Positions 1,082-32,188 of a stretch of 32,379 nucleotides of DNA are shown here, one piece after another. The notes beneath the pieces were generated by a model. The model did no database searches and had not been told where the DNA came from. It worked only from the letters and a program-made list of their open reading frames with translations. A program made the position numbers and the translations under genes. The DNA is from a virus. The stretch lies in the UHGV virus genome UHGV-0235014; one strand, written 5' to 3'. How positions within the stretch are numbered: the stretch's first letter is position 1; each line of letters starts with the position of its first letter.

Positions 1082-2434
<1,353 letters not shown>

Positions 2435-22240: not shown

Positions 22241-23590
22241 ATGGCTACGTGGCAACAGGGTATTAATTCTGGTGGTTTTCTGGCTGGCATCGGTACGCAA
22301 AATGAGAATGCGCCAAAGGCAAGCGACATTAACGCAACGCTTGGTCTGATCCGCGAAAACAATGAATTGGCTCGATCAGGTGCAAATAACGTTGGTCTGA
22401 CCGCGTTACGTGGTCTGGCTGGAGTTGCTGATATTTACAATCAGGAACAGCAACAGAAAGCGATTAGTGCGTTCAATAAGGTTCACGCTGATGCATGGGC
22501 TTCTGGTGATCCATCGGGACTATTTAAGTTTGCCAAGGAAAATCCAGCGTTTGTTGCGCAGGCACAACAGGCGTTTTCCGGTCTTAATGAGCAGCAACGC
22601 AACGATATGGGCGATTTAGCCATGAGGGCTAACGTCGCTCTTTCTCAGGGACCGGAAGCCTACAGTAAATTCATTACTGACAACAAGGACAGGTTAAATC
22701 GCGTGGGGGCGAATGCTGACTGGATGATTCAGACAGGTATCCAGAATCCAGAGCAGCTATCACACATGTTGACTACTATGTCTCTCGGTGCGCTTGGACC
22801 AGAAAAGGCGTTTGCTGTTCAGGACAAGATGGTTGGTCGCCAGCAGGAGCAGCAAAGAATTAACGAAACCATTCGCAATAATGACATGACGAATGCGAGG
22901 GCTATTAGGGGGCAGGATCTTTCCTATAAGGCTCAAATGGCAAGACTGAATCACGACAAGTATGTGTTTAAGCAGTCACAGGCGGCCCTTGAAAGAGCAG
23001 GACAACTTCAGGATATGGATGTTTTGTCTCTTAACTCACAGATAGCAGCGACGGGAATTGATCCGCTAACCGGTAAAGCTGCAACGTCAGCCAGAATGTC
23101 TCAGGCTAAGAGATGGCTTGATGGCAACAATAATTACAACAATGCGTTGATTACTGGTGAGCGAGGGATAGAGAAAATAGATTCTTTGCTTGGTAAGAAG
23201 GAGCTTGAAGGTATCGGTCGCTTCGAAGGAAGAAATATAGATGGCTTCACAAGTGCTGAAGGGCTTGCAAACCGTAATGCGATAGAAGAATTAAAGTCGG
23301 GTGCGTTTGTCCAGAACGTGCAGACTATGCGAGGTATGGGTAGCCTCTCCAATGCTGAAGGACAAAAACTGGAAAACCTTATCGCGAAACTCGATATAAC
23401 ACAGCCTGAAGAGGTCGTCAGAAAACAGTTATCTGAAATCCGATCGCAATATTCTGTATTTCAAAAGGTTGCAGCAAGGGAGGCTGAATCAATGGGATAT
23501 AGTTCATCAGGTTATGACACATATGTTAGTGAGCGAAAATCAGGAAGCGACAGCAATAAGTCCGGTTTCTCGTCTTTATGGGGTGATTAA
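22241..23590 (+). CDS. ejection (E) protein, P22 gp20-like
   Basis: 449 aa; synteny. Confidence 0.75.
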
Positions 23591-25464
23591 TGGCTAAAGC
23601 ATGGAAAGATGTTATCGCTTCTCCACAGTATCAGGCGTTAACTGAAGAACAGAAAGCACAGGCTCAAGCGCAATATTTTGATGAGGTTGTTGCCCCTAAG
23701 GCTGGTGACAAATGGGCTGAAGCAAGAGATCAGTTTTATGCAGCATACCCTCCACCTCAGCAGCAGAAAGAAGAACCATCATTGATGCAACAAGCTGGTG
23801 ATTGGCTCACAGGTGGTCAAAGTGCAGGGCAAATTGCAGAACAGGCTGGTCGTGGTCTGGTAAACATACCATTTGACGTATTGCAGGGTGGCGCAAGTCT
23901 GATTAATGCAATCAGTCAGGGGCTTGGTGGACCCAAGGTTTTGGATGATGTTTATCGTCCAGTAGACAGACCGACAGACCCATACGCACAAGCCGGTGAA
24001 ACAATTGGTGGGTATTTAGTTCCAGGAGTTGGAACGGCAGGAAGCATGGCTATTGGATCACTGGCAGAGGCCGCAAATCAGAAAGGCGATTTCGCACAAA
24101 ATGCAGCTAAAAATGCCGGAGTTAACCTTGCCGCTCAGGGTGTTCTTTCCGCAGCAGCAAAGGGAATAGGGCGTGGAATAACGGCTATAAAAGGTGATAT
24201 TGCGCCAGAAGTGGCGAAGAAAATTGCCACATCAGAATCGATGGGCGTGACACCAATGACATCTGATGTTATCCCGCCGAAAAATGCTTTCACTCGCGGC
24301 CTTACTCAGGATGCCGAGGGGGCTTTGCTCGGGACAGGCTCAAAGCGAGCGGAGCAATATGCAACGCGTAGTAAGCTGGTAAGCAATTATTTTGACCGTT
24401 TTGGTGAGTACAACCCTGATGATGTGGTGAAATCTCTGACCACCACGTTAAGGGGGCGGAAGGATGCTGCTGGCGCTGTTATCAATGACGTCACCAATAA
24501 AATGGGTAATGCCGCAGTTGATACCACAAATACCATGAATGCTCTGAATACAGCGATCGCAAGACAGGAACGGCTTGGGACTTCAGCCAATCAAAGCCTG
24601 CTTACATCCTTGCGTAACCTACGTGAAGAATTAGCAAACCCTGCAACTGATTTGGATGTTACGTTTGATCTCTTGCGTCAGCACAGAACAGCATTTAGAT
24701 CTAATGTTCAGGGAGATGCTATGGTCTTCCCCAACCAGGCAAAAGCAGCTACCAATATGGTAGAGAATGCAATGTCAAAAGACCTTCGTAACGCAGTTGC
24801 TAAAAACCTCGGTGCATCAGACGCAGCAAAATACCTTAAAGCAAATTCCGATTATGCAAACGTTTATAATAAGGTGCTTAATAAAAACATTGCCAACAAG
24901 CTCAACAAGGCAAGCAGTGAAGCCAGTCCTGAACTTATAAATACCGTTGTATTAAGCAGAAAACCATCTGACGTGAAACGAATCTGGAGCGCACTGGATG
25001 ATAAAGGGAAAGATGCTATGCGTGCAGCTTACGTCAGCAAAATAGCGGAAAAGGCCGGTGACTCTCCAGCCAAGTTCATCACTGAAGTTAATAAGCTGAA
25101 ATCTCAGTCAGGAGGTGAAATTTACAACACTATTTTTTCTGGAAAGCACATGAAAGAACTTGATGCTCTTAATGAAGTTCTACAGCAAACAGCAAGGTCA
25201 GACACCGCAAATGTAGTAACTCAGACGGGGCAATCGCAAGCCAACAGGATAAGGACGATTGGCGCAACTGCGACTCTTGGCGTATCAATGGGGCTTGAGG
25301 CTGGTTTCGGTGCAATGATGCGCTTGTATGAGTCCAAAGCAGCAAGGAATGCGCTCTTACGTCTGGCAAACACTAAAGCTGGAACGCCAGCCTATGAAAG
25401 AGCGCTGAATAACGCCGCAAATGCCATCAGACCAATACTTGCCAATGATGCAACTGATCGCTAA
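23590..25464 (+). CDS. ejection (E) protein, P22 gp16-like
   Basis: 624 aa; synteny; last gene of structural operon before strand switch. Confidence 0.75.
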
Positions 25465-25485: not shown

Positions 25486-26124
25486 TTAATTGCGAATGGA
25501 ATCGCGGAACTCTTTGCTTGATAGAAAAGGATCTGTTCTCCTTAACTCATCATAGTTTTTATTAAACTTTCTTGCTTCACCTGGGTATCTGTTGAACAAA
25601 ACATTGCAGAAAAAAGAGAGCAATAACTCACATATGAATGCTAATACCCTGAAAAATAAAGGTATAAAAAGAAGGGAAGGTTCATTGAAGTCTCTATTCC
25701 AAACAAAATAGACAATCATCCCGACATACCAAATTGATATCCCTATACTGATGATTGTTCCAACAGAGGTAACTACGATCCCGATTAAGTCGGACAGTCT
25801 GTTTGCCAGTAACTCATTTGAGTATCTTGCAATCATATACCGCCAACATTTTGCAATATCATCCTGATCTGTAGAGTCTTCTGGAATAGCTAGGCTTCTA
25901 CATATTGAAGTAGCTCTTTTTTTCTCAACTCTTTTTGAGATCCATCCATTAAAGAGATACATCAACACCTGCGTTGCTATTCCTGCACCAAGTGATATCA
26001 AAGACATCCCCAAAAATCTCCATCCTGGAGATAGTGACTGGTACTGCCAAACAAAAAAAATTAAAAAACCCAATGAGCCTATGACATAGGCTGATGTATC
26101 GCTATATATATCTATTTTTTTCAT
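25486..26124 (-). CDS. polytopic inner-membrane protein; candidate superinfection exclusion (SieA-position) protein
   Basis: Minus strand, ATG 26124 with AAGGAG SD; ~5 predicted TM segments; very AT-rich; downstream of and co-oriented with a repressor gene, between gp16 and the ant module where P22 carries sieA. Confidence 0.7.
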   Translation of the reverse strand: MKKIDIYSDTSAYVIGSLGFLIFFVWQYQSLSPGWRFLGMSLISLGAGIATQVLMYLFNGWISKRVEKKRATSICRSLAIPEDSTDQDDIAKCWRYMIARYSNELLANRLSDLIGIVVTSVGTIISIGISIWYVGMIVYFVWNRDFNEPSLLFIPLFFRVLAFICELLLSFFCNVLFNRYPGEARKFNKNYDELRRTDPFLSSKEFRDSIRN

Positions 26125-26188
26125 TGAGTAGCCACTCCTTAGTTTTGAGCAGAACACCGGATGATAATGTGTCGCTTCCTAAAGGATA

Positions 26189-26830
26189 TCAAAGCAACGG
26201 GATTTCAAGGTAAACTGCGGTTGCCAAAATACTAACATCTTCATTTCTAACAAGAATATTAGGATACATTGGGTTTAGGGATACTAAGTTTGTCTCTATT
26301 TCACCAATGTAAACCTGCTTGAAGCTCAATATTTGCTCTTTATCCAATGATGCTATTACATAATCTTTGCTTTTAGCTTTTACTAGAGGGCTGAACGTGA
26401 CAACTGATCCTCTGGGAAAGCTAATACCTGAACTTGTAGTCATAGCTTCACCTTCAATAGTCAATGCAAATGCAGAGTCACCAACATTGTATATTGCCGG
26501 ATGAAATCTAGACGATGAATGTTCACCTGTGTTTAGGTAATGCATAACTTCATCTAGTTTGAGGATTGGTATTTGCTTTACCAGAACGTCAGGCATGACG
26601 TTTTTTGTTCCAGGCCCCTGACCTTCACCCAGAGCTAACCACTCAGCCGTAGTGCCTAATGCGTTGGCTAATGCCTGCAATACACGAAGCCGTGGTTTAG
26701 CCTCACCACCCTCGTATGCAGCTATTTGACGTTGAACAACACCAGCTAATTTTGACAACTGCGCCTGCGTCATACCCCTGGACTGTCTTGCCAGAGATAC
26801 TCTTGATGGGAATTGATCGTCAAAATTCAT
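26189..26830 (-). CDS. CI/LexA-like repressor (HTH_XRE + S24-like domain with nucleophile Ser replaced by Ala)
   Basis: 213 aa; HTH MTQAQLSKLAGVVQRQIAAYEGG; C-domain aligns to 434/lambda cI but has GEAM in place of GDSM; Lys of FKQV retained. Confidence 0.8.
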   Translation of the reverse strand: MNFDDQFPSRVSLARQSRGMTQAQLSKLAGVVQRQIAAYEGGEAKPRLRVLQALANALGTTAEWLALGEGQGPGTKNVMPDVLVKQIPILKLDEVMHYLNTGEHSSSRFHPAIYNVGDSAFALTIEGEAMTTSSGISFPRGSVVTFSPLVKAKSKDYVIASLDKEQILSFKQVYIGEIETNLVSLNPMYPNILVRNEDVSILATAVYLEIPLL

Positions 26831-26861
26831 TAGTTCACCATAAAAAATTCATTGACTCATA

Positions 26862-26890
26862 CTGAGTGTGAGTGAATAATCAAACTACAA
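26862..26890 (+). promoter_or_regulatory. candidate promoter for arc-like/ant operon in divergent intergenic region
   Basis: TTGACT (26862..26867) - 17 nt - AATAAT; between divergent repressor and RHH genes; operator not resolved. Confidence 0.4.
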
Positions 26891-26929
26891 AAAGTGAGAT
26901 TATGAGTTTTTCAAAAACAGGAGTGCATA

Positions 26930-27103
26930 ATGACTGAAAAGATATCTTCCATCAAGCCGCGTCAGGTTCGTTTTACAGAAAAGGTTGATTCACATATCCG
27001 CGAATCAGCAAAAAGATGCCATAGGTCAATTCAGGCAGAGATAGCTTATCGAATGGAGTTATTGATGAAACTTGAGGCAAAGGGCGATGTTGTCATCCAA
27101 TAA
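26930..27103 (+). CDS. Arc-like ribbon-helix-helix protein (57 aa)
   Basis: ATG 26930 with CAGGAG SD; basic beta-strand PRQVRFTEKV then two helices typical of RHH; directly precedes antirepressor; short, not in ORF track. Confidence 0.6.
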   Translation: MTEKISSIKPRQVRFTEKVDSHIRESAKRCHRSIQAEIAYRMELLMKLEAKGDVVIQ

Positions 27104-27176
27104 AAATAGTGAAGCCCGGCAGTGCGCGAACACAAACCGGGCCTCTATGTCAGTAACCGTATGCAAGGAAACTAAC

Positions 27177-27803
27177 ATGAATATTGTAGCAAAATCAGAT
27201 TACAACTTCCACGGAGTTGAGTTGGTGCCCACCCGTGATATGCATGGTGTTTGGTTTACATCATCTAATATTGCATCTGCACTTAAATATGCAAATAGCC
27301 GTGCAGTAACAATGATTTATAACAAGTATAGCGATGAGTTTAGCGCCGGAATGACTCAGGTACTCGAAGTGAGTACCTCAGGAAATTATCGCAAAAAAGT
27401 GCGAGTTTTCTCACTACGCGGTGCCCACCTAATCGCGATGTTTGCTCGCACTCCGGTAGCCAAAGAGTTCCGCCGCTGGGTGCTGGATATTTTGGATCGG
27501 CAGGCAGAATGCTCACCGATTGCAAAACAGTTTACTGACGAAGAACTGGTTAATCTCTGCTACTTACAATTGTGGATGGAGAAGAGTCAACAAATGTGCA
27601 AACACATCTACCCAGGAATGAAGCAAATTGGTTCTGAGCTTTCAGGAAGAATTTACGATATTGCATATGAGACTCGCTATATGTCAGAAGAAACCAAGAA
27701 ATCACTTCTTCGTGAAATGAAGAATCTTGATACCAACAATTTTGTCGTAAAGAACGCTCAGCCAATGCTGACAAAACTGCGCGGCGAGGAATGGATTCAT
27801 TGA
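27177..27803 (+). CDS. antirepressor-like protein with N-terminal Bro-N domain
   Basis: 208 aa from ATG 27177 (AAGGA SD); YNFHGVELVPTRDMHGVWFTSSNIASALKY fits Bro-N pattern. Confidence 0.75.
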   Translation: MNIVAKSDYNFHGVELVPTRDMHGVWFTSSNIASALKYANSRAVTMIYNKYSDEFSAGMTQVLEVSTSGNYRKKVRVFSLRGAHLIAMFARTPVAKEFRRWVLDILDRQAECSPIAKQFTDEELVNLCYLQLWMEKSQQMCKHIYPGMKQIGSELSGRIYDIAYETRYMSEETKKSLLREMKNLDTNNFVVKNAQPMLTKLRGEEWIH

Positions 27804-27891: not shown

Positions 27892-28617
27892 ATGACTTTG
27901 AAGAATGTAGCAAACATCGGATCCGTTGTCACGGATAAAACCATTGACAGCCAAAGTCTTCTGATGATGGTTAATGAAGCTCGCAAGTTATGTGGAGAGC
28001 CATCAGTACGTAACAACAAATTCATCGAGAAAATTGAGGATGAATTGGAGGGCGAGACCTACACAAAAAGTGTAGGTCGGAAAAACGGGGCTGACATTGA
28101 TGTTATCTCCATGACTATCAAGCAGGCGCTTCGTGTTGCTGCTCGCGAATCTAAAGCAGTTCGCCGAACACTTGTAGACAAACTTGAAAGTATGCAAGAA
28201 GCGCACATTAAAAGCGGTAAATCGTCGAGTGGACTTGTTGAGTATCGCCAGGCACGAACATTGAAAATGACGGTTGAAGCTGTTACCAATCTGTTAGATT
28301 TGATGCCAAATCTTGCGCCGGAAGCAAAGCAGACTGCGGCAGCAAGCATAATCAACCCGATAGTTGGTTTTAATGCAATACCTCTTCCAGCAATAGAAGA
28401 GCATTACTACTCAGCAGGGGAGGTTGCAGAGCAGCTTGGAGTAACGGCAAACAAGATTGGTCGCATTGCTAACGCAAACAACCTCAAAACTGAGCAGTAC
28501 GGGAAGTTCTTCTTGGATAAATCTGCGCATTCAAGCAAACAGGTGGAAGCATTCCGCTACAATGCGGAGGGTGTTAAAGCACTACAACACCTGATTCATG
28601 GGAGCAATGTTGCATAA
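27892..28617 (+). CDS. hypothetical protein in ant operon (possible antirepressor/regulatory protein)
   Basis: 241 aa from ATG 27892 (AAGGA SD); not confidently recognised. Confidence 0.6.
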   Translation: MTLKNVANIGSVVTDKTIDSQSLLMMVNEARKLCGEPSVRNNKFIEKIEDELEGETYTKSVGRKNGADIDVISMTIKQALRVAARESKAVRRTLVDKLESMQEAHIKSGKSSSGLVEYRQARTLKMTVEAVTNLLDLMPNLAPEAKQTAAASIINPIVGFNAIPLPAIEEHYYSAGEVAEQLGVTANKIGRIANANNLKTEQYGKFFLDKSAHSSKQVEAFRYNAEGVKALQHLIHGSNVA

Positions 28618-28838
28618 TGGCAAAGAAAAGATATGGCATTATGCCGCCAAGAATCAAAGGAAGAGCCAGGGTAAAAGGAGATGCTGGAAGGTATCACATT
28701 CTTGGAGTTCTGTGGCATGAGAGAGCTTTAATTTTAAGTAGACCTCATGGGTACATTGAAAAGGTATCTATAGATAGAGTAGAGATTCTTCCCCTTACAC
28801 CTGAAGAAGAAGAAACGTACGGACTTTTTGATAACTAA
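28617..28838 (+). CDS. small hypothetical protein (73 aa)
   Basis: TAATG overlap with preceding gene; followed by strong terminator. Confidence 0.5.
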   Translation: MAKKRYGIMPPRIKGRARVKGDAGRYHILGVLWHERALILSRPHGYIEKVSIDRVEILPLTPEEEETYGLFDN

Positions 28839-28845
28839 CCAACTA

Positions 28846-28875
28846 AACCCGCTTAATTGCGGGTTTTTTCTTTTC
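28846..28875 (+). terminator. intrinsic terminator ending the ant operon
   Basis: AACCCGC-TTAATT-GCGGGTT followed by TTTTTTCTTTT; stop codon of the convergent mnt-like gene lies in the loop. Confidence 0.75.
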
Positions 28876-29110
28876 TAAGGATATCAGCCACAACTTCTTT
28901 TACTCGTTCCGAGATTAATGAGGCCAGCCTCTCTTCTTCATCACGATACCCGCTTACAGGTGATGGTTTGGAGAGTGATTCTTCCATCGTAGCCACAATT
29001 TCGGAATTGATAGACCTGTTATTCATTTTTGCACGTTGCTTAATCTTAGCGTGCAACTCGTGCGTAAGCCTCAAGTGGAACTGCGCCTCATCGTATTTGC
29101 TGTACATCAT
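28853..29110 (-). CDS. mnt: Mnt-like ribbon-helix-helix repressor
   Basis: 85 aa from ATG 29110 (GGTGAGG SD); ...NRSINSEIVATMEESLSKPSPVSGYRDEEERLA... closely parallels P22 Mnt (..NGRSMNSELLQIVQDALSKPSPVTGYRNDAERLA..). Confidence 0.7.
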   Translation of the reverse strand: MMYSKYDEAQFHLRLTHELHAKIKQRAKMNNRSINSEIVATMEESLSKPSPVSGYRDEEERLASLISERVKEVVADILRKEKTRN

Positions 29111-29242
29111 CAATGCCTCACCAAATGGGTGGAATGGCATCGTAAAACCTACTGTACAAATCAACAATCGTACCATTTCGGTATGCAACAAACACCAACC
29201 GTAGCCACGCTGCGGCGATTCCTTGTATCTGGAGCAAATTAA

Positions 29243-32188
29243 ATGACAGACATTACAGCCAATGTTGTGGTAAGCATGCCTTCGCAACTCTTCACTATGG
29301 CTCGTTCTTTTAAAGCGGTAGCCAATGGCAAAATTTATATCGGTAAAATTGACACTGACCCAGTAAATCCTGAAAACCAGATTCAGGTTTATGTGGAGAA
29401 TGAAGACGGTTCTCACGTTCCTGTTTCGCAACCAATAATCATTAACGCTGCTGGATATCCGGTATATAACGGACAGATTGCCAAATTCGTTACCGTGCAA
29501 GGCCATTCTATGGCTGTTTATGATGCGTATGGTGCACAGCAGTTCTATTTTCCCAATGTGCTGAAGTATGACCCTGATCAACTACGGCAGCAATTAGAAG
29601 ACCCAGATGGAGCGAATAAATACCCAAAACTTCAGATAGCAAGATGGAGAGACAGTTATGATGTAAGAGGTTGGGGGGCTATTGGTGATGGTGTTCATGA
29701 TGATACATCAGCTCTATCAGAATTACTTTCTGTTGCAACAGGTGGTGAAAAGATAGATGGGCGAGGGCTTACTTTTAAAGTATCAACTCTTCCAGATGTC
29801 AGTCGATTTAAAAATGCTCGTTTTTTATTTGAGAGAATACCGGGTCAGCCTCTTTTTTATGCTTCTGAAGATTTTATCCAGGGAGAGTTATTTAAAATTA
29901 CAGATACACCGTGGTACAACGCCTGGACGCAGGATAAAACGTTTGTATATGACAATGTCATCTATGCGCCTTTTATGGCTGGAGACCGCCATGGTGTAAA
30001 TAACCTCCATGTTGCATGGGTTCGCTCAGGAGATGACGGGAAGACCTGGACAACGCCGGAATGGCTTACAGATTTACATGAAAACTATCCCACAGTTAAC
30101 TATCACTGCATGAGTATGGGGGTTGTCAGAAATCGCCTTTTTGCTGTAATTGAGACGCGGACCGTGAGCGGAAATAAACTGCAGGTTGCAGAGTTGTGGG
30201 ATCGCCCAATGAGTCGCAGCCTTCGCGTTTATGGTGGTATAACGAAAGCAGCAAATCAGCAAGTCGCTTATATTCGCATTACTGATCACGGATTATTTGC
30301 TGGTGATTTTGTCAACTTCTCAAATTCTGGTGTTACAGGTGTTACCGGGAATATGACGGTGACTACTGTTATTGATAAAAATACTTTTACAGTTACGACG
30401 CAAAATACCCAGGATGTGGATCAGAATAACGAGGGTAGATACTGGAGTTTTGGTACATCATTTCACTCGTCACCATGGAGAAAAACCAGTCTTGGAACTA
30501 TTCCTTCTTTTGTTGACGGAAGCACTCCTGTTACTGAGATTCACAGTTTTGCGACGATTAGCGATAACAGTTTTGCTGTTGGCTACCATAATGGTGATAT
30601 TGATCCACGCGAGCTTGGGATACTCTATTTCTCTGATGCTTTCGGTTCTCCTGGTAGCTTTGTTCGCAGACGCATACCTGTAGAATATGAGGCGAATGCA
30701 TCTGAGCCATGTGTAAAATATTATGATGGCATTCTGTATCTGACGACCAGGGGGACATTAAGTACTCAACCCGGTAGTTCATTGCACAGAAGCTCTGATT
30801 TAGGTACATCATGGAATTCTCTTCGCTTCCCAAATAATGTTCATCACTCAAACCTTCCTTTTGCCAAAGTTGGCGATGAGCTGATTATTTTTGGCAGTGA
30901 GCGCGCATTTGGTGAGTGGGAAGGAGGAGAACCTGATAACCGTTATGCAGGAAATTATCCAAGAACATTTATGACCAGAGTTAACGTCAATGAGTGGAGT
31001 CTGGATAATGTAGAGTGGGTTAATGTTACTGATCAGATTTATCAGGGCGGAATAGTTAACTCTGCGGTTGGTGTTGGTTCAGTTTGTATCAAAGACAACT
31101 GGCTGTACTACATTTTCGGTGGGGAAGACTTTCTAAACCCATGGAGCATAGGGGATAACAACAGAAAATATCCTTATGTTCACGATGGTCACCCGGCTGA
31201 TTTGTATTGTTTCAGGGTGAAAATTAAACAGGAAGAATTTGTTTCAAGGGATTTTGTCTACGGAGCCACTCCTAACAGAACGCTTCCTACTTTTATGTCG
31301 ACGTCAGGCGTGAGGACGGTTCCTGTACCCGTTGATTTCACAGATGATGTTGCCGTCCAGTCACTGACTGTCCATGCAGGTACATCAGGACAAGTTCGCG
31401 CGGAAGTCAAACTTGAGGGTAATTACGCCATTATTGCGAAGAAAGTACCGTCTGATGATGTTACCGCTCAGAGATTAATCGTTAGCGGCGGTGAAACAAC
31501 GTCTTCAGCAGATGGTGCAATGATAACGTTGCATGGTTCCGGAAGCAGTACTCCACGTCGCGCGGTATATAACGCACTCGAACATCTTTTTGAGAACGGA
31601 GATGTTAAACCTTATCTTGATAATGTAAATGCTCTTGGTGGTCCGGGAAACAGGTTCTCGACAGTTTATCTTGGCTCCAATCCTGTGGTTACCAGTGACG
31701 GAACATTAAAGACAGAGCCGGTCTCTCCTGACGAAGCATTGCTGGATGCCTGGGGTGACGTCAGGTATATCGCTTATAAATGGCTGAACGCTGTCGCTAT
31801 AAAGGGGGAAGAAGGGGCGAGGATACATCATGGTGTAATCGCGCAGCAACTTCGTGATGTTCTTATTTCTCACGGACTCATGGAAGAAGAAAGCACAACA
31901 TGCCGCTATGCGTTTCTTTGCTATGACGATTATCCCGCAGTATATGATGACGTCATTACTGGCCAAAGGGAAATGCCGCTGACTGATAATGACGGGAGCA
32001 TCATTGTTGATGAGGATGATAATCCAGTGATGGTAATGGAAGACATCATTGAGCGCGTTGAAATAACGCCAGCAGGATCTAGATGGGGGGTCAGACCTGA
32101 TCTCTTATTCTATATCGAGGCGGCATGGCAGCGCAGAGAAATAGAAAGAATAAAAGCTAGGTTAGACTTAATAGAAGGGAAGCACTAA
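29243..32188 (+). CDS. tailspike protein: P22 gp9-like head-binding domain + endosialidase (endo-N-acylneuraminidase) + C-terminal intramolecular chaperone (S74-like) domain
   Basis: 981 aa; N-terminal ~115 aa conserved tailspike head-binding domain; Asp-boxes SGDDGKTW (30026..30049) and SSDLGTSW (30791..30814); C-terminal region with Ser-x4-Lys (VVTSDGTLK, Ser at 31694..31696) typical of auto-cleaving chaperone domains. Confidence 0.85.

Follow-up and report, generated by a model that had tools for sequence, protein, structure and literature searches.

A helix-turn-helix repressor with a degenerate S24 domain as the candidate SOS-blind maintenance repressor of a conserved, mobile immI-type antirepressor cassette

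Secondary immunity has its textbook example in the immI region of phage P22, where the order is mnt - Pmnt/Pant - arc - sar - ant. As described by Villafane et al. in 2008, this region is a rapidly changing 'ant moron', having degraded genes in some phages, and both CUS-3 and HS-1 possess ant without arc, so that the control of ant must differ there from that of P22 (PMC2629481). The present analysis concerns one such region in the UHGV virus genome UHGV-0235014, a stretch of 32,379 nucleotides referred to as the window, and within it a gene at 26189..26830 on the minus strand, encoding a protein of 213 amino acids (aa) with a helix-turn-helix (HTH) domain and an S24-like domain. This protein is proposed, with a probability of roughly two in three, to be a constitutive, SOS-blind maintenance repressor of an immI-type ant cassette, and thus a fold-swapped analogue of P22 Mnt. 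The features on which the first part of the argument depends are the following:

26189..26830, minus strand: gene of the HTH and degenerate-S24 repressor, 213 aa, stop codon included (open reading frame (ORF) list, Pfam).
26630..26812, minus strand: Cro/C1-type HTH DNA-binding domain, residues about 7-67 (Pfam HTH_3; matches to 434 repressor and the P22 C2 N-domain; alignments).
26204..26518, minus strand: S24-like beta-barrel C-terminal domain, residues about 105-209 (Pfam 108-206; lambda cI C-domain alignments; Foldseek).
26444..26446, minus strand: codon GCT for Ala129, at the position of the Ser nucleophile, Ser149 in lambda cI (phmmer, MAFFT and profile alignments).
26318..26320, minus strand: codon AAG for Lys171, at the general-base position, Lys192 in lambda cI, retained (phmmer and profile alignments).
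1483..2115, minus strand: primary C2/cI-type repressor of the window, the comparison partner (Pfam S24 profile positions 1-116, 7e-25; RAG, EGDSMT and TFKK in the alignment).

Regarding the overall architecture, the repressor combines a DNA-binding domain at the N-terminus with an S24 beta-barrel at the C-terminus, as in the autocleaving repressors of the LexA/cI type, as seen by Pfam (HTH_3 at residues 14-65, E 9.3e-13; Peptidase_S24 at residues 108-206, E 1.3e-12) and by Foldseek. When all PDB sequences were searched with phmmer, the best matches were the entries of the lambda cI C-terminal domain, 2ho0, 3bdn and 1kca, with E of about 1e-7. The AlphaFold2 model has a mean predicted local distance difference test (pLDDT) score of 81.5, and its Foldseek matches in the PDB are the C-domains of lambda repressor, LexA, UmuD' and Mycobacterium tuberculosis LexA, with a probability of 1.00 and template modelling (TM) scores of about 0.65-0.74 on C-domain targets (about 0.7 against 1f39, 1kca and 2ho0). 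The recognition region of the HTH domain, GVVQRQIAAYEGGEAKPR, is nearly invariant in alignments of the repressor family.

Besides this conserved fold, there are differences at the residues required for self-cleavage. The phmmer alignment pairs EGEAMT of the repressor with EGNSMT of lambda cI, which contains Ser149, and SFKQ with TFKK, which contains Lys192; the same columns for Ala129 and Lys171 are obtained by MAFFT with lambda cI, the C2 of the window and 22 database homologues, and once more in a 135-sequence alignment of profile-search matches. The G-x-S-M motif of the Ser nucleophile is therefore absent, being replaced by GEAM with Ala129, and the Lys general base of the LexA/cI class is present as Lys171. 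The scissile Ala-Gly bond is also gone, as the repressor reads KLDEVMHY where lambda cI has HVQAG and the C2 of the window has MVRAG, and neither Ala-Gly nor Cys-Gly occurs at the aligned cleavage site. In addition, the Pfam S24 match of the repressor starts only at profile position 23, compared to positions 1-116 for the C2 of the window, indicating that the cleavage-site region is no longer recognisable, and residues 92-101, lying in this segment, are predicted by AlphaFold2 as a helix. Meanwhile, the C2-type repressor keeps Ala-Gly, GDSM and Lys all intact in the alignment. The S24 fold is thus kept, with only one of the three chemical prerequisites of self-cleavage still in place, and a repressor without the Ser nucleophile and the Ala-Gly bond should not cleave itself on RecA filaments.

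An earlier note on this DNA, based on an alignment made by eye with the cI S24 domain, had claimed a Ser-to-Ala change at the nucleophile, a retained Lys and a preserved S24 fold. Its alignment was correct, since the formal alignments agree with it and place no Ser of the repressor in the nucleophile column; the change to Ala129 and the pairing of Lys171 with lambda Lys192 were recovered by phmmer, MAFFT and profile alignments alike, and the fold by the Pfam match, the AlphaFold model and the top Foldseek matches. The strings it quoted are real, FALTIEGEAMTTS being found in the repressor and the comparison string in the C2/cI-type repressor. The missing Ala-Gly site, with LDEVM in its place, and the shortened Pfam match go beyond what it had noticed.

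Ala129 is no sequencing accident, because EGEAM, within TIEGEAMTT, is present in all 14 members listed of the repressor's 90% cluster, from E. coli and Salmonella, at least 1000 contigs carry the exact protein, and diverged relatives use either of two synonymous codons for this Ala, GCT or GCA.

It could be supposed that the repressor still responds to SOS, either through another nucleophile (Thr131, Thr132, Ser133 or Ser134) or by being cleaved in trans by C2 or LexA-type domains. Intermolecular cleavage is known for proteins of the LexA/cI family, Lys171 is retained, and the GEAM motif is succeeded by Ser and Thr residues, in a loop modelled with low confidence (residues 131-135). However, the scissile Ala-Gly is absent and segment 92-101 is predicted as a helix and not as a cleavage loop, relatives have also lost Gly127 or Lys171, and LexA S119A and the equivalent cI mutants, among them PDB 1jhh, 6a2s and 8s7g in the Foldseek matches, are the standard non-cleavable forms, which makes an SOS-responsive repressor very improbable.

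The loss of these residues is not restricted to the window. Among the 22 closest database homologues, Ala is found in the clade of the query, as GEAM or GDAM, and separately in the most distant member, P0022, as DPAM. Homologue P0003, sharing 81% identity with the query, has GDSM with the Ser codon TCT, and it is nested inside the Ala clade in the neighbour-joining tree (bootstrap of 100% for the clade and 85% for the nesting), indicating that Ser and Ala have toggled there. Considering the 32 lineages of IMG/VR, defined as clusters of 90% identity, Gly127, Ser129 and Lys171 are all kept in only 16, at least one of them being lost in the other 16, with readings such as D-x-A-M/R, D-x-S-M/R and G-x-G-M/V. 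Neither Ala-Gly nor Cys-Gly occurs at the aligned site in any of the 32, where HVQAR, HVQSR and QAS are remnants recalling the canonical HVQAG; among close family members in the larger protein database, Ala-Gly survives in just two, P0016 and P0047, in which Ser and Lys are intact as well. By its sequences, the family looks like a cI-type lineage in which the scissile bond was lost early and the catalytic residues are now being lost, and the protein of the window is one well-populated instance of this degenerate repressor family.

As the catalytic residues are degenerate across the family, and the ant moron changes rapidly and contains degraded genes in some phages (PMC2629481), the protein might be without function, a decaying leftover of what was once a primary immunity repressor and travelled with the ant genes. 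Because synonymous sites are saturated, with a synonymous divergence (pS) of about 0.8, ratios of dN/dS were rejected and the non-synonymous divergence (pN) was set against pS. Between Ala-bearing relatives, pN of the C-domain is 0.07-0.20, and in all three domains the non-synonymous divergence lies 4- to 17-fold below the saturated synonymous divergence, indicating that the C-domain is maintained by strong purifying selection and is not decaying. The nearly invariant recognition region, the wide occurrence of the exact protein and the persistence of a full-length ORF with its synteny in 90 loci, down to 32% identity, speak in the same direction, and a functionless remnant is hardly credible.

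These 90 loci comprise nine database loci, one locus of a Providencia phage and 80 from a scan of IMG/VR. In the ten database loci, the Providencia phage included, the homologue is divergent from an ORF of about 57 aa, after which come between one and three genes for antirepressors (Bro-N, P22_AR_N/C, pRha, ORF6N). In IMG/VR, antirepressor homologues lie upstream and divergent in 80 of 80 loci, with a recognisable small ORF between repressor and ant in 78. The backgrounds of the cassette are P22-like podoviruses, lambda-like tail clusters, other siphoviruses and one site next to an integrase. In the siphovirus loci L003, L009, L011 and L013, the whole repressor/small ORF/sar/ant cassette lies inside tail-gene clusters, for example between tape-measure and minor-tail genes, so that the ant moron is not specific to the junction of P22 genes 16 and 9.

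In the window itself, the following features surround the repressor gene:

23590-25464: gp16 homologue.
25486..26157, minus strand: SieA-like superinfection-exclusion gene, directly downstream of the repressor gene and on the same strand (PHROG 7745, 7.5e-21).
26852..26880, plus strand: predicted sigma-70 promoter of the ant operon, TTGACT-17-AATAAT, 10/12 consensus (promoter scan).
26855..26867: candidate operator O1, overlapping the -35 hexamer and spacer, with the palindrome ACTCAT-A-CTGAGT.
26894..26907: candidate operator O2, GTGAGATTATGAGT, TGAG repeats 8 bp apart, downstream of the -10 element.
26930..27103, plus strand: 57-aa ORF, first gene of the ant operon and positional counterpart of P22 arc (PHROG 10182, 2e-37).
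27101..27185, minus strand: predicted sar-homologous antisense RNA element, with a 5' hairpin over the Shine-Dalgarno sequence and ATG of ant and a 3' terminator hairpin followed by a T run.
27177..27803, plus strand: antirepressor gene, Bro-N and P22_AR_C (Pfam; PHROG anti-repressor Ant, 4e-54).
27892..28617, plus strand: second antirepressor-family gene (PHROG 1726 anti-repressor, 1.7e-100).
28617..28838, plus strand: 73-aa ORF, last gene of the rightward operon (PHROG 4977, unknown function, 1e-53).
28853..29110, minus strand: Mnt homologue, 85 aa, Arc family (Pfam Arc, 1e-14; 45% identical to P22 Mnt).
29243-32188: tailspike gene, 981 aa.

The gene order is thus gp16, SieA-like gene (minus), HTH-S24 gene (minus), a 99-bp control region, 57-aa ORF, Ant, second ant gene, 73-aa ORF, Mnt homologue (minus) and tailspike, confirming for the window the slot between gene 16 and the tailspike gene by which the ant moron is defined (PMC2629481). 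The window is a CUS-3-like P22-type prophage, with 97% identity over 63% of 24 kb, carrying an ant moron of the JEP4/HS-1 type, and is therefore a mosaic of that backbone and that moron. In the tailspike, as in that of CUS-3, the P22 head-binding domain is fused to a K1 endosialidase and to a chaperone domain of the S74 type.

A protein 100% identical to the repressor is found in Escherichia phage JEP4 (QOC67863 region) and in the P22-like prophage of E. coli HS (WP_001008290, 'helix-turn-helix domain-containing protein'), and in both, as in the window, the antirepressor genes are divergent from the repressor gene; the corresponding DNA is carried by 53 of the 5426 complete E. coli genomes. 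The prophage of E. coli HS is inducible by mitomycin, which is consistent with the proposal but not diagnostic. The ORF begins with ATG, preceded 4 nt upstream by a GGTGA Shine-Dalgarno sequence, and the N-terminus MNFDDxFPxRV is kept in all relatives, favouring the 213-aa start over the shorter annotation of JEP4. In that record (MT740315; L001 6073-6642), the start is an internal Met, giving 189 aa, and the label is 'repressor protein C2'; other records of the same protein read 'LexA family' or 'peptidase S24'. Such names imply a cleavage activity to which the sequence gives no support. Literature searches found no study of the HTH-S24 repressor family.

The divergent control region, 26831-26929, is 99 bp long, and its promoter architecture is kept in nine diverged cassettes, whose control regions are all about 99 bp; in the intergenic alignment, TTGAC of the -35 element is invariant, with a 17-bp spacer and a -10 element. 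Being near consensus, the ant promoter by its sequence needs no activator. An exact 10-nt direct repeat, AAAATTCATT, occurs at 26822-26831, overlapping the repressor start codon, and at 26844-26853, abutting the -35 hexamer, and may be due to chance. Control of the ant promoter by LexA was ruled out, as no CTGT-N8-ACAG box occurs in 26831-26929, even with one mismatch allowed; across the window, the counts of such boxes are at chance level.

The promoter is also where a different mode of action has to be weighed, in which the HTH-S24 protein is the activator of a transcription factor and small-ORF induction module: its S24-like domain would sense a cue, the 57-aa ORF and ant would be turned on, and the primary repressor would be inactivated, resulting in SOS-independent induction. 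An HTH regulator divergent from an ORF of about 50 aa resembles the modules of this kind reported by Silpe et al. in 2023 (PMC10432266), the 57-aa protein lacks a secure fold assignment, and the retained, constrained C-domain could serve as the sensor. However, a target promoter with 10/12 consensus and a 17-bp spacer should be constitutively strong, and the conserved palindrome over its -35 hexamer and spacer has the position typical of a repressor site. Moreover, full-size antirepressor genes come after the small ORF, and the cassette is homologous, via sar and Ant, to P22 immI, where the divergent regulator is a repressor. An activator role thus seems unlikely, and repression of the ant promoter is the preferred reading of the locus.

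Regarding possible binding sites for the repressor, O1 is present at the same centre in the window and in loci L003, L009 and L012, and weakly in L013, that is, in four to five of nine cassettes, and as a palindrome it is statistically unremarkable within 99 bp. O2 consists of direct and not inverted repeats; an ATGAGT element is found at its position in eight of nine cassettes, its form varying with the type of 57-aa protein, and in the geometry of P22 it sits where Omnt lies. The assignment of operators was dropped, since O1 is unremarkable and missing from three of eight cassettes and O2 is made of direct repeats, neither being linked to a protein.

The 57-aa protein is highly conserved, with 30 homologues at 81% identity or more, and a second sequence type takes its place in other cassettes. 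Its similarity to ribbon-helix-helix proteins is weak, as Pfam ParD_like is matched at 8e-4, below the cut-off, hhalign gives a probability of 16% for Arc/Mnt, and CopG 6iya is matched with E 0.17; one NCBI name for it is 'Arc family'. The AlphaFold model of the monomer is one long helix, built from a shallow alignment whose members share at least 81% identity. Both an Arc analogue and a small antirepressor are candidates for what this protein may be.

The relation of the cassette to immI is carried by the antisense element together with Ant. From the stop of the 57-aa ORF to the start of ant, the minus strand folds as two hairpins, with a minimum free energy of -35.1 kcal/mol and a z-score of -6.65, and the 3' hairpin varies by compensatory changes between cassettes. 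A covariance model of the element, for which eight cassettes were used, locates it in all 58 sources searched, each time at this junction and on this strand. Among 49 distinct sequences, 95.3% of the cells pair and double changes occur in 9 of 12 pairs, with a covariation score of 0.528, compared to 0.242 for shuffles and at most 0.23 for slid controls. The frequent G-U pairs would be mismatches on the strand of the ant mRNA, indicating that the folded strand is the antisense one. The same model matches the annotated sar of P22 (NC_002371 15021-15090) with 46.6 bits and E 2.4e-8, and both elements have the same geometry, the terminator lying in the gap before ant (the arc-ant gap in P22) and the promoter inside the 5' end of ant. 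In Rfam, no sar family is matched at this element, only SymR below threshold, at 21.8 bits against a gathering score of 61. Within ant, around 27188-27196 of the minus strand, TGCTACAAT is a possible extended -10 sequence. As both sar and Ant are homologous to those of P22, the cassette is homologous to immI, though its divergent repressor has a different fold.

The earlier note had also found the protein consistent with an immI-type repressor, which is backed by the synteny and by the sar homologue; it is, however, not the sole immI-style repressor of this phage, as a true Mnt homologue is encoded at 28853..29110 on the minus strand. This gene runs towards the ant operon and away from the tailspike gene (intergenic region 29111-29242), at about 2 kb from the ant promoter. 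It was not counted as part of the cassette, since no more than 24 of 93 loci have Arc/Mnt homologues, and these loci all appear to be P22-like; like the mnt of the mnt-only morons of ST64T and L, it is a gene of the P22-like backbone. It may have been left over from an older mnt-arc-ant region, or it may regulate read-through of the tailspike.

This Mnt homologue could nevertheless be the true maintenance repressor of ant, the HTH-S24 protein then regulating another target, such as sieA, or only its own transcription. Such an arrangement would agree with the presence of a bona fide Mnt homologue and with the co-directional, adjacent position of the repressor gene and sieA. On the other hand, the homologue stands far from the ant promoter and beside the tailspike gene, it is missing from most of the cassette loci, in which the HTH-S24 gene always abuts the ant promoter, and SieA is unlinked to the repressor in siphovirus contexts. 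Control of ant by the Mnt homologue alone is accordingly quite improbable.

If the HTH-S24 protein is the maintenance repressor, its HTH domain would most likely bind the 99-bp divergent region and, in the lysogen, shut off the promoter of the 57-aa ORF, the two ant genes and the 73-aa ORF; the protein may act as an autoregulator on its own leftward promoter too. The LexA/cI beta-barrel of the C-domain would probably serve dimerisation or cooperativity. As RecA filaments would not inactivate such a repressor, the synthesis of Ant would be uncoupled from SOS, as with P22 Mnt, and SOS induction would run through the cleavable C2-type repressor at 1483-2115. By analogy with sar and Arc in P22, further braking, post-transcriptional and autoregulatory in kind, probably comes from the sar-homologous RNA and the 57-aa protein.

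Several points weigh against this proposal. O1 is absent from L011, L008 and L005, which are three of the eight cassettes sharing the recognition helix, and in the geometry of P22 it sits where Oarc lies, which is the site of Arc and not of Mnt. If catalysis was lost long ago, there is no ready explanation for Lys171 being conserved to this day in the Ala clade. The Mnt homologue of the same phage could share or take over the control of ant, and a repressor of this kind leaves to be explained how ant is ever derepressed.

A broader evolutionary scenario would have the family descend from a cleavable cI-type ancestor and give up self-cleavage repeatedly and irreversibly, the dead but constrained S24 barrel being repurposed to receive a signal other than SOS, for example a heterologous antirepressor, some small protein or a factor of the host. 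The cassette would then be a mobile anti-immunity weapon with its own trigger, moving between the late operons of podoviruses and siphoviruses. This scenario is doubtful and is offered only tentatively.

With the HTH-S24 protein, a candidate regulator is named for the unexplained control of ant in prophages of the HS-1 type, where it had not been identified since 2008, and this candidate belongs to a conserved mobile cassette homologous to immI via sar and Ant. The family also shows, in naturally occurring proteins, how S24 domains shed their catalytic parts in series, Ala-Gly before Gly, Ser or Lys, with the domain itself staying under selection. Consequently, it is unsafe to infer SOS inducibility from labels such as 'LexA family', 'peptidase S24' or 'repressor C2'. 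In addition, where prophages share a cell of E. coli or Salmonella, their cross-induction may be under the control of the cassette. No new principle is involved, as S24 domains that are inactive and ant morons that vary were known before.

Compared to P22 immI, the cassette of the window has the same slot, between gene 16/sieA and the tailspike, a short divergent control region (99 bp, and about 90 bp in P22), a small first gene before ant, a homologous antisense RNA at the junction, a related Ant with P22_AR_C and, presumably, a maintenance repressor that SOS does not cleave. It differs in having a 213-aa repressor with HTH and S24-like domains, compared to the 83-aa ribbon-helix-helix Mnt of P22, a 57-aa first gene with marginal Arc similarity, at the hhalign probability of 16%, two antirepressor genes, candidate operators unrelated to Oarc and Omnt, and an occurrence also in the tail-gene clusters of siphoviruses. 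With lambda cI, P22 C2 and LexA, the repressor shares two domains, a Cro/C1 HTH, the S24 beta-barrel, the G-x-x-M motif and Lys, the nearest solved structures being those of lambda cI (3bdn, 2ho0, 1f39); unlike them, it has Ala for Ser, no Ala-Gly and a cleavage region unmatched by the Pfam profile, and its gene lies outside the immC position, being paired with ant and not with cro.

The modules of Gifsy AntO/GfoA, coliphage 186 Tum and N15 AntC are similar, as they lie outside immC and their antirepressor is held off by a repressor of the S24 family (PMC3121763). In those modules, however, the repressor is the LexA of the host and its cleavage is the induction signal, whereas here the repressor is encoded by the phage and specific to the cassette, with no LexA box and a logic that would be blind to SOS. 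The CI of coliphage 186 is likewise an HTH repressor inactivated by an antirepressor and not by self-cleavage (PMC3121763), and its structure 2fjr is among the Foldseek matches of the repressor, with E 1e-5, a match that may rest largely on the HTH domain; it is, however, a primary immunity repressor, with no detectable sequence relationship to the repressor of the window.

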